In this document: piece after piece, positions 3,185 through 4,856 of the stretch | How positions within the stretch are numbered: position 1 is the first letter of the stretch | Layout: each line of letters opens with the position of its first letter | Notes under the pieces: generated by a model | What the model was told of the DNA's origin: nothing | What the model saw: the letters and a program-made list of their open reading frames with translations, nothing else | The model's database searches: none | Position numbers and translations under genes: made by a program | Origin: a virus | Lineage: Duplodnaviria; Heunggongvirae; Uroviricota; Caudoviricetes | Strand: one strand, 5' to 3' | IMG/VR virus record: IMGVR_UViG_2778261644_000002 | Length of the DNA: 4,856 nt

Positions 3185-3204
3185 AAACCGCCCGGAGGCG
3201 GTTT
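3185..3204 (-). other. Perfect 8-bp inverted repeat (stem-loop) in the 60-nt I-J spacer; possible RNA structural, attenuator or processing element
   Basis: Plus strand aaaccgcc-cgga-ggcggttt (3185-3192 pairs with 3197-3204, 4-nt loop). On the sense (minus) strand it reads AAACCGCC-uccg-GGCGGUUU followed by UAUCGUUUAU, immediately ahead of the J RBS. The GC-rich core is only 5 bp and the U-run lies partly within the stem, so it is at best a weak intrinsic-terminator-like hairpin. Confidence 0.3.
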
Positions 3205-3222
3205 CACATAAAACATTTTGCA

Positions 3223-3894
3223 TCAGCGACCAATCACCACAACCTGACCACCATCCCCTTCGTCTGCCGTGCTGATCTCCTGAGAAACCACCCGTGACCC
3301 CACGCGCATTTCACCGTACAGAACAGGCAGAACATTGCCCTGGGCAACCATGTTATCCAGTGAGGAGAAATAGGTGTTCTGCTTACCGTTATCCGTTGTC
3401 TGTGTACGGGGAGTTCTGACTTTCGGTGCCAGCATCTGCGCCACACCACCAAGTACCATACTGGCACCGAGAGAAAACAGGATACCGGTCATACCACCGG
3501 CCCCAATGGCTGCCCCCCATGCTGCAATGGTGGCTCCGGCAGTAAAAAATGATCCGGCAATGGCGGCAGCCCCCAGAACAATCTGGAATACGCCCCCTGA
3601 CTTGGCCCCGGCGACTCTGGGAACAATATGAATCACAGCGCCGTCAGGCAGAGTCTCATGTAACTGCGCCGTTAACCCGGACGTGCTGACGTCCCGCCCG
3701 GCAATCCGTACCTGATACCAGCCGTCGCTCAGTTTCTGACGAAACGCCGGGAGCTGTGTGGCCAGTGCGCGGATGGCTTCAGCCCCCGTTTTCACACGAA
3801 GGTCGATGCGGCGGCCAAATCGTTGCAAATCCCCGTAAAGGCAGATGCGTGCCATGCCCGGTGACGCCAGAGGGAGTGTGTGCGTCGCTGCCAT
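3223..3894 (-). CDS. I: Tail assembly protein I (223 aa): N-terminal ubiquitin-like domain ending in Gly-Gly, then a Gly/Ala-rich hydrophobic segment
   Basis: Complete minus-strand ORF, ATG at 3894 and TGA at 3223-3225, translating MAATHTLPLASPGMARICLYGDLQRFGRRIDLRVKTGAEAIRALATQLPAF..., recognised as lambda gpI. Its start lies 103 nt inside K in a different frame, as in lambda. A purine-rich GAGAGAGG sits about 11 nt upstream of the ATG. Confidence 0.95.
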   Translation of the reverse strand: MAATHTLPLASPGMARICLYGDLQRFGRRIDLRVKTGAEAIRALATQLPAFRQKLSDGWYQVRIAGRDVSTSGLTAQLHETLPDGAVIHIVPRVAGAKSGGVFQIVLGAAAIAGSFFTAGATIAAWGAAIGAGGMTGILFSLGASMVLGGVAQMLAPKVRTPRTQTTDNGKQNTYFSSLDNMVAQGNVLPVLYGEMRVGSRVVSQEISTADEGDGGQVVVIGR

Positions 3895-4535
3895 TTGTCG
3901 GTATACCTCTCTCGTTTGCTCAGTTGTTCAGGGATATGGTGCAGCAGCTCGCCATCACCACAGTAAATGGCGGCATGATTCGGCACCGATGAACCAAAAC
4001 AGCACAGCAGCACATCGCCCGGTTGTGCTGATGACAACGGCACCTGATACAGCCCTGTGGCCTCCAGATTATCCAGATAGAGATTCTGACCGTGACGCCA
4101 CCAGTCATCCCCGTGATGAAAATCCGGCATCTCAATCCCCGCCAGATGATAAGCATCCCGGAACAGCGTGTAACAGTCCGTCACCCCGTGCTCAAAGCGC
4201 CGCCCGGTGAGATGCGGCACACAGCGGAACTTATGAATCGTCCCCCGGCAGACCAGCCACCACGGCAAATCACTCTGCACCTGCAGCCGCCGGTCGGCCT
4301 CACTCAGCCAGGGCAGACCACCGGGGTGGCTGTGGACCAGCGCCATAATCTCACCCTGCATTTCTGCACTCAGCCAGTCTTCCGGCGACATACGGAAATA
4401 CGCCTCCGGCTCACCGGAGATATTCACGCAGGGGAAATATCTTTCCCCCTCCGGCGTGCTTACCACGAAGCCGCACGACTCCGCTGGCGCACATCGCCGG
4501 GCGTGCGCCAGAATCGCTGATTCTGTCTGTGTCAT
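3792..4535 (-). CDS. K: Tail tip assembly protein K, JAB/MPN (JAMM) metalloprotease-like domain fused to an NlpC/P60 (C40) peptidase-like domain. Longest ORF is 247 aa; the classically annotated lambda K start corresponds to the internal ATG at 4391 (199 aa, 3792..4391)
   Basis: Minus-strand ORF with stop at 3792. From the internal Met the product reads MSPEDWLSAEMQGEIMALVHSHPGGLPWLSEADRRLQ..., recognised as lambda gpK. The JAMM signature H-x-H-x7-S-x2-D is present (HSHPGGLPWLSEAD), and NlpC/P60-like Cys/His residues lie in the C-terminal half (TDCYTLF, NHAAIY, LLHH). The frame stays open 48 codons further upstream to an ATG at 4535, 5 nt after the L stop. The internal ATG at 4391 is preceded by GGAGG about 11 nt upstream. 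Confidence 0.9.
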   Translation of the reverse strand: MTQTESAILAHARRCAPAESCGFVVSTPEGERYFPCVNISGEPEAYFRMSPEDWLSAEMQGEIMALVHSHPGGLPWLSEADRRLQVQSDLPWWLVCRGTIHKFRCVPHLTGRRFEHGVTDCYTLFRDAYHLAGIEMPDFHHGDDWWRHGQNLYLDNLEATGLYQVPLSSAQPGDVLLCCFGSSVPNHAAIYCGDGELLHHIPEQLSKRERYTDKWQRRTHSLWRHRAWHASAFTGICNDLAAASTFV

Positions 4536-4540
4536 GGGAT

Positions 4541-4856
4541 TTACTGCGAAAGTTTGTTAATGGAAAGGAAGCCGCCAAAGTTGCCGACGTTATTGCGAAA
4601 CTTACAGCCACTCAGGCATTTGCTGCATTTATCCTTCGTGATATCGGACGTTGGCTGGTCATATTCATCCGCGACCGCCGGACCGTGATAACCGCACTCA
4701 TCGCCGCGATAGGTCCAGGTGCAGGTGTTGGCCAGCATGATACGTCCCGGAAAAACAGCGCCATCTGTTTCCGTCGGCGTGGACAGTACAAAGGAGGCAC
4801 TCACCGCGCTCAGTTCGCTGCACTGCTCGATGCGCCAGCGGCTGATCACCTCCTGC
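4541..4856 (-). CDS. L: Tail tip protein L, 5'-truncated by the window edge: C-terminal ~104 aa present, including the Cys-rich region
   Basis: Minus-strand frame open from the right window edge to TAA at 4541-4543, ending ...CSKCLSGCKFRNNVGNFGGFLSINKLSQ, which I recognise as the lambda gpL C-terminus. It sits immediately upstream of K, as in lambda. The Met at 4849 in the ORF track is internal; the true start is outside the window. Confidence 0.9.
   Translation of the reverse strand, partial: QEVISRWRIEQCSELSAVSASFVLSTPTETDGAVFPGRIMLANTCTWTYRGDECGYHGPAVADEYDQPTSDITKDKCSKCLSGCKFRNNVGNFGGFLSINKLSQ

Follow-up and report, generated by a model that had tools for sequence, protein, structure and literature searches.

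A 247-residue JAMM and NlpC/P60 product of lambda-type tail gene K, and a base missing from the lambda reference

Introduction

The tail protein gpK of bacteriophage lambda is needed for tail assembly and has gone undetected in lambda virions by mass spectrometry or cryo-EM. A JAMM motif in lambda K was already listed in 2004. In 2006, the JAB and NlpC/P60 architecture of the protein and its position beside ubiquitin-like I were reported (Iyer et al. 2006), and it was predicted in the same year that K removes the ubiquitin-like (Ubl) domain of I. In the tail tip, only residues 134/135-222/223 of gpI are resolved. A 2020 review gives gpK as '199 residues in total' and reports the peptidase domain at residues 52-182 alone.

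JAMM proteins also occur in stand-alone form. In AfJAMM, the motif consists of E22/H67/H69/S77/D80; its Glu forms a hydrogen bond to the water on the zinc and is the proposed acid-base catalyst (PMC300881).

The annotated length of K differs between records. A product of 199 residues is still given by NC_001416, OM418626, HK630 and UniProt TIPK_LAMBD, and this annotation was copied in HK630, DE3 and lambda imm434 despite an open frame in their own DNA. A length of 247 residues is annotated in phage 21 and in a 2025 lambda record (PV340536). The lambda-type 247-residue K is a 'MULTISPECIES' RefSeq entry present on at least 1,000 contigs, and in prophages of E. coli PGAP calls a 744-nt gene for a 'C40 family peptidase'. 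Here we describe gene K in a 4,856-nucleotide stretch of Caudoviricetes DNA (the window) and compare it with the lambda records.

Results

Gene K in a lambda-type tail gene cluster

Four genes lie on the minus strand of the window, in the order 3' end of L, a 247-codon open reading frame (K), I and the start of J (3162). The C-terminus of L matches PF05100 (Phage_tail_L) and I matches PF06805 (Lambda_tail_I). The K frame is open from ATG 4535-4533 to the TGA at 3792 (3792..4535, 247 residues plus stop), in agreement with the 247-residue frame from ATG 4535 in the original prediction, and the classical start is its codon 49 (4391). The encoded tail tip assembly protein matches PF14464 and PF00877. 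Its N-terminal half is a JAB/MPN+ (JAMM) domain (residues 3-104; 4224..4529), recognised by PF14464, by profile matches to PDB entries and by Foldseek. It is followed by an NlpC/P60 (C40) papain-like peptidase domain (residues 111-224; 3864..4205).

The window DNA is 96.7-98.8% identical to lambda-like phages (mEp460_4F5, phage 21, HK630, DE3 and lambda), and RefSeq WP_097443064.1 is identical to the 247-residue K of the window. The gene is located between L and the Ubl protein I, upstream of J, and has high identity to lambda K, as is characteristic of a lambda-type K (TAPK). We conclude, with a probability of about 0.9, that this is the lambda-type tail gene K, that its JAMM and NlpC/P60 product of 247 residues begins at ATG 4535, and that the 199-residue form is an annotation artefact.

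The first 48 codons belong to K

The segment absent from the classical protein (4392..4535, minus strand) encodes residues 1-48, MTQTESAILAHARRCAPAESCGFVVSTPEGERYFPCVNISGEPEAYFR. ATG 4535 is the sole canonical start upstream of E19 in the K frame, and an in-frame stop lies 7 codons farther upstream. An open stretch of ~55 codons has a ~7% probability of arising by chance, which alone is not significant. It is the profile match, conservation and purifying selection that show the extension to be coding.

The Prok-JAB profile (PF14464, Pfam cut-off 25 bits) matches the 247-residue protein with 49 bits over residues 3-104, covering profile positions 3-112 of 114. With the 199-residue form the score falls to 20.6 bits, under the threshold, and the match is restricted to positions 65-112, the final 48 of 114. 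As anticipated, the domain thus needs residues 3-48. The extension by itself scores 23.4 bits over profile positions 3-41, and the NCBIfam model of desampylase, a JAMM enzyme, matches the long form of K only.

Searched exhaustively, 1.84 billion cluster representatives yielded 2,750 K homologues. For full-length homologues at 35-50% identity, the alignment begins at query residues 1-19. Several positions of the extension are almost invariant among 109 aligned homologues: E19 (103/109), C21 (99/109), G22 (105/109) and N38 (104/109). The extension and E19 are thus conserved down to ~35% identity. Comparison of the window with seven diverged relatives gave dN/dS values of 0.06-0.5 for codons 2-48 (Nei-Gojobori), and for the more diverged pairs the values fall within the range seen elsewhere in the gene. 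By this sequence-based measure, codons 2-48 are under purifying selection.

The AlphaFold2 model of K has a mean pLDDT of 80.6, with values of 88-95 for residues 1-40. This region forms a helix (residues 3-15) and two strands (residues 21-27 and 30-36), corresponding to helix 1 and strands 1-2 of the JAB fold. The expectation that a JAB domain starting at the internal Met would lose the Glu and the first strands is borne out by the model, in which a helix and two core strands would be missing. The 48 extra residues belong to the K protein, and the original observation is confirmed.

E19 and the JAMM motif

The E19 codon (GAG, 4479..4481) encodes the predicted general acid-base Glu of the JAMM motif, identified within an ExCG sequence by alignment and conservation. 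It had been proposed that E19, in the sequence E-S-C-G, precedes H68-S69-H70 by 49 residues and is followed by S78 and D81; exactly this arrangement is found. The predicted zinc ligands and catalytic Ser, H68-S69-H70 and S78-x-x-D81, are encoded at 4293..4334. E19, H68-S69-H70, a further seven residues and S78-E-A-D81 agree with the pattern E-Xn-H-(S/T)-H-X7-S-X-X-D. Conservation among the 109 homologues is similarly high at these positions (H68, 105/109; H70, 104/109; S78, 99/109; D81, 105/109).

The JAB domain gives PDB profile matches to 2KKS, 2KCQ and PfJAMM1 (5LD9/5LDA). In the family profile alignment, E19 aligns to the Glu of the ExCG sequence of these solved JAMM proteins ('EaCG' and 'EvCG' in 2KKS and PfJAMM1), and in the AlphaFold2 model it is positioned just ahead of strand 21-27. 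Foldseek superimposes the N-terminal half of K on PfJAMM1 with an rmsd of 2.8 Å over 109 columns, and also matches Rpn11, CSN5 and AMSH. Together, these comparisons support E19 as the residue that completes the JAMM motif of K and as its predicted catalytic Glu.

A base missing from the lambda reference

The lambda reference J02459/NC_001416 lacks a G between its positions 14266 and 14267. The corresponding base of the window is at 4401 (minus strand), 9 nt upstream of the internal ATG. NC_001416 reads GAGGCTATTTCCGTATG, while the window and other sequences read GAGGCGTATTTCCGTATG. With one G fewer, the open reading frame starting 5 nt after L (lambda 14132) leaves the frame and ends after 76 codons, and translation upstream of the lambda RefSeq K start runs into an in-frame stop. 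K in the reference then has no usable start before ATG 14276. The short classical K thus results from the base missing in J02459, not from a free choice of the wrong ATG. The original prediction was right to place the classical start at ATG 4391, but it assumed that the frame is open upstream in the lambda reference too, and this part fails since a G is missing there.

DE3, the lambda of K-12 CV601 (KT232076) and of MG1655 (PV340536), lambda imm434 and HK630 all carry the G. It was found in every independently sequenced lambda examined, and in 31 of the 33 loci that carry the stretch. More than 20 lambda-type loci have no mismatch to the reference and exactly one gap, the missing G, over an aligned stretch of up to 1,100 nt. 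The short version occurs in only 4 of 122 matching phage records: J02459, NC_001416 and two others with identical coordinates. It had zero matches among 7,351 places in 5,426 complete E. coli genomes.

The majority of the more than 20 lambda-type loci are contaminating lambda contigs, which we took as lambda resequenced independently. Lambda-identical contigs at low coverage are found in unrelated assemblies, including those of Shewanella, Pseudomonas, Bradyrhizobium, Paenibacillus, Neobacillus and Kitasatospora, among others, and some of them are ~48.4-48.5 kb long. Their presence in unrelated bacterial assemblies is almost certainly due to contamination with laboratory lambda DNA. Vendor documentation for lambda cI857 ind1 Sam7 DNA may likewise note, against J02459, one inserted base near 14266.

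The simplest reading is that the 1982 lambda sequence holds a single-base error or a stock-specific lesion. The missing base in the reference explains the discrepancy between the long and short forms of K, and this explanation is newly added here; the full-text literature searched yielded no explicit statement of a K start correction or of the missing base. Programmed frameshifting in lambda K was also considered and is ruled out, as the extra base is simply present in all independent lambda sequences.

Over all of its 76 positions, phrog_7305, a PHROGs family of unassigned function, aligns to residues 1-76 of K. The out-of-frame upstream reading frame of the lambda reference is likewise 76 residues long, and of these only the initial 45 are common to it and K. 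Pieces of the K N-terminus, and possibly frameshifted reading frames, called as separate genes may make up this family.

Translation start of K

Upstream of K, the L stop codon TAA (4543-4541) is followed by a 5-nt spacer, ATCCC (4540-4536; stop and spacer 4536..4543). The spacer between L and K measures 4-10 nt in related prophages. The upstream ATG had been described as lying 5 nt past the L stop with no Shine-Dalgarno sequence. Both points are corroborated by the spacer and by an anti-Shine-Dalgarno duplex energy of ~0 at this start. Given the short gap and the missing Shine-Dalgarno sequence, coupling to L translation can reasonably be inferred. The classical ribosome-binding site and start consist of GGAGG (4407-4403), 11 nt and the ATG of Met49 (4391-4389; whole element 4389..4407). 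This GGAGG, annotated as a ribosome-binding site in OM418626, gives a duplex of -9.5 kcal/mol.

A good Shine-Dalgarno sequence before the internal ATG, together with the original lambda annotation and several records, would favour the classical view that only the 199-residue K is made, the preceding 144 nt being a spacer between L and K that is not translated and is open by chance. We regard this as highly improbable: the extension matches the JAB profile on its own (23.4 bits), shows protein-level conservation throughout the family, is under purifying selection and folds confidently within the domain, and the frame is closed in J02459-derived records only. Starts between the two ATGs fare even worse. 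The gene is annotated with 675 nt in LR595868 and with 636 nt in KT232076, and initiation at GTG codon 24 or GTG codon 37 would yield 224 or 211 residues. Such proteins would drop helix 1 and strand 1, along with H11, P17, E19, C21 and G22, which are ~82-96% conserved, while the homologues align from residues 1-19. The GTG starts of these automated annotations are ruled out on conservation.

The same Shine-Dalgarno sequence raised the prospect of two isoforms, with lambda and its closest relatives making both the 247-residue protein and a 199-residue form that is without a working JAB domain and has a role of its own. The duplex at GGAGG is strong where the long start has none, and the pair of Met and GGAGG is retained throughout the closest lambda-like group. 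However, it is only in this group that the two co-occur. Residue 49 is Met in just 16 of 109 homologues and is otherwise mostly Ile (66/109), Leu (13/109) or Val (6/109). Relatives at 85% identity retain GGAGG yet carry ATT or ATC at codon 49, and Citrobacter relatives retain the ATG with GGAGG gone. As the Met49 ATG and GGAGG separate among relatives, GGAGG is explained by the codons for E-P-E-A. In addition, the 11-nt spacing exceeds the optimum, and a protein started at Met49 would be without the helix and two core strands of the fold. Thus, the predicted GGAGG at the internal ATG is present, but a conserved short isoform finds no support in the comparison of relatives.

Two functional isoforms are therefore unlikely. 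Some internal initiation, yielding a 199-residue product in lambda-like phages, is conceivable, given a ribosome-binding site that is strong on paper. It is very doubtful that a 199-residue isoform with a crippled JAB domain exists beside L-coupled full-length K and that their ratio tunes the processing of I or H in tail tip assembly. The 247-residue protein started at ATG 4535 remains the preferred reading.

The NlpC/P60 domain

The C-terminal domain matches PF00877 with 47.7 bits over residues 111-224 (Pfam cut-off 23 bits). The Cys-His-His triad is complete, with C121, H187 and H199 each at least 90% conserved in 89 sequences. Both Foldseek and profile searches match the C-terminal half of K to MepS/Spr, CwlO and LytE. 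Given that gpK is absent from virions, it is unlikely to serve as a virion enzyme that degrades the cell wall.

Gene I and other neighbouring features

Gene I encodes a ubiquitin-like tail assembly protein of 223 residues (3223..3894, minus strand) and overlaps the 3' end of K by 103 nt in a different frame. Its annotation problem runs the other way: in PGAP calls and several records the gene begins at GTG 3795-3793, which overlaps the K stop and gives 190 residues. Lambda_tail_I matches the 223-residue protein completely (100 bits, positions 2-83 of 83), while the 190-residue version scores 68.8 bits over positions 26-83. Because only the longer protein covers the profile in full, the 103-nt K/I overlap (3792-3894) looks real. 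The short calls of I would lose the beginning of the ubiquitin-like domain.

Residues 226-247 of K (3795-3860) are encoded inside the overlap with I. In distant homologues these positions are poorly conserved, with 58% gaps and a top-residue frequency of 12%. At the level of sequence comparison, this suggests that the C-terminal tail of K and its overlap with I are confined to phages of the lambda-like lineage.

In the spacer between I and J (I stop 3225-3223, J ATG 3162), the minus strand has a GC-rich hairpin with a perfect 8-bp stem, AAACCGCC-TCCG-GGCGGTTT (3185-3204), and a T-rich run comes after it. A terminator is annotated at the equivalent place in the phage 21 record. The hairpin of the window went unflagged in a simple scan for terminators.

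Some database proteins fuse L to K (PF05100 with PF14464 and PF00877) or K to I (with PF06805 in addition); P0007, P0015, P0025, P0030, P0034, P0041, P0043 and P0048 are examples of fusion proteins. With an L-K gap of 4-10 nt and overlapping K and I, such fusions could conceivably arise from single-base indels or assembly errors. TAPI fusions were mentioned by Iyer et al.

Discussion

The 247-residue K is not novel, since it is present in RefSeq (WP_097443064.1) and its architecture was published in 2006. The long form is a correct but known correction, largely ordinary in kind, with no new biology beyond the repair of the reference. The repair nevertheless concerns the reference phage, whose records J02459/NC_001416 and TIPK_LAMBD still omit the first 48 residues of K. 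Work based on the 199-residue lambda records loses half of the JAB domain. Studies of gpK function by mutagenesis, expression or structure prediction must use the 247-residue protein, in which E19 is the obvious target for a catalytically dead variant.

Most likely, ribosomes that have just terminated on L would reach the K start at ATG 4535. Residues 1-48 supply the first helix and two strands of the N-terminal JAMM/MPN+ metalloprotease domain, including E19, which is predicted to act together with S78 and the putative zinc ligands H68, H70 and D81. In the C-terminal half lies a predicted NlpC/P60 cysteine peptidase with C121, H187 and H199 as its catalytic residues. As gpK is required yet absent from virions, it would act during assembly, and its absence also leaves virion mass spectrometry silent on the N-terminus. 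The domain content, together with the earlier analysis (Iyer et al. 2006), points to K as a non-virion assembly protease, whose probable substrate is the adjoining ubiquitin-like protein I. The partial resolution of gpI in the tail tip is compatible with the 2006 prediction that K cleaves off the Ubl domain of I, and is not proof of it. Cleavage of the tape-measure protein H by K is a speculative further candidate.

The closest described protein is the deposited lambda gpK (TIPK_LAMBD, NP_040598; 199 residues), which is the product of the same gene in the same L-K-I-J order. Residues 49-247 of the window K correspond to the deposited protein with few substitutions, and the lambda-type 247-residue K is 96% identical to that of the window. 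The deposited lambda K is without the first 48 residues, its DNA being one base short, while the window and the resequenced lambdas keep the intact frame. Relative to the K family described in 2006, the window K is a typical member, with the same two domains and the same Ubl I and J neighbours.

The two halves of the protein also resemble proteins outside the tail gene cluster. The C-terminal domain shares the profile, fold and Cys-His-His residues of NlpC/P60 (C40) peptidases such as E. coli MepS/Spr, at an identity of 13-19%. The N-terminal half shares its fold and the E...HxH...S..D motif with the stand-alone JAMM proteins AfJAMM (1R5X), the Pyrococcus furiosus JAMM1 desampylase (5LD9/5LDA) and DSY2949 (2KKS). 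The spacing of the motif is near-identical, E22/H67/H69/S77/D80 in AfJAMM and E19/H68/H70/S78/D81 in K. Unlike the stand-alone JAMM proteins, to which its identity is only ~21-24%, K is a predicted enzyme in which the JAMM domain is fused to a C40 peptidase and placed in the setting of phage tail assembly.
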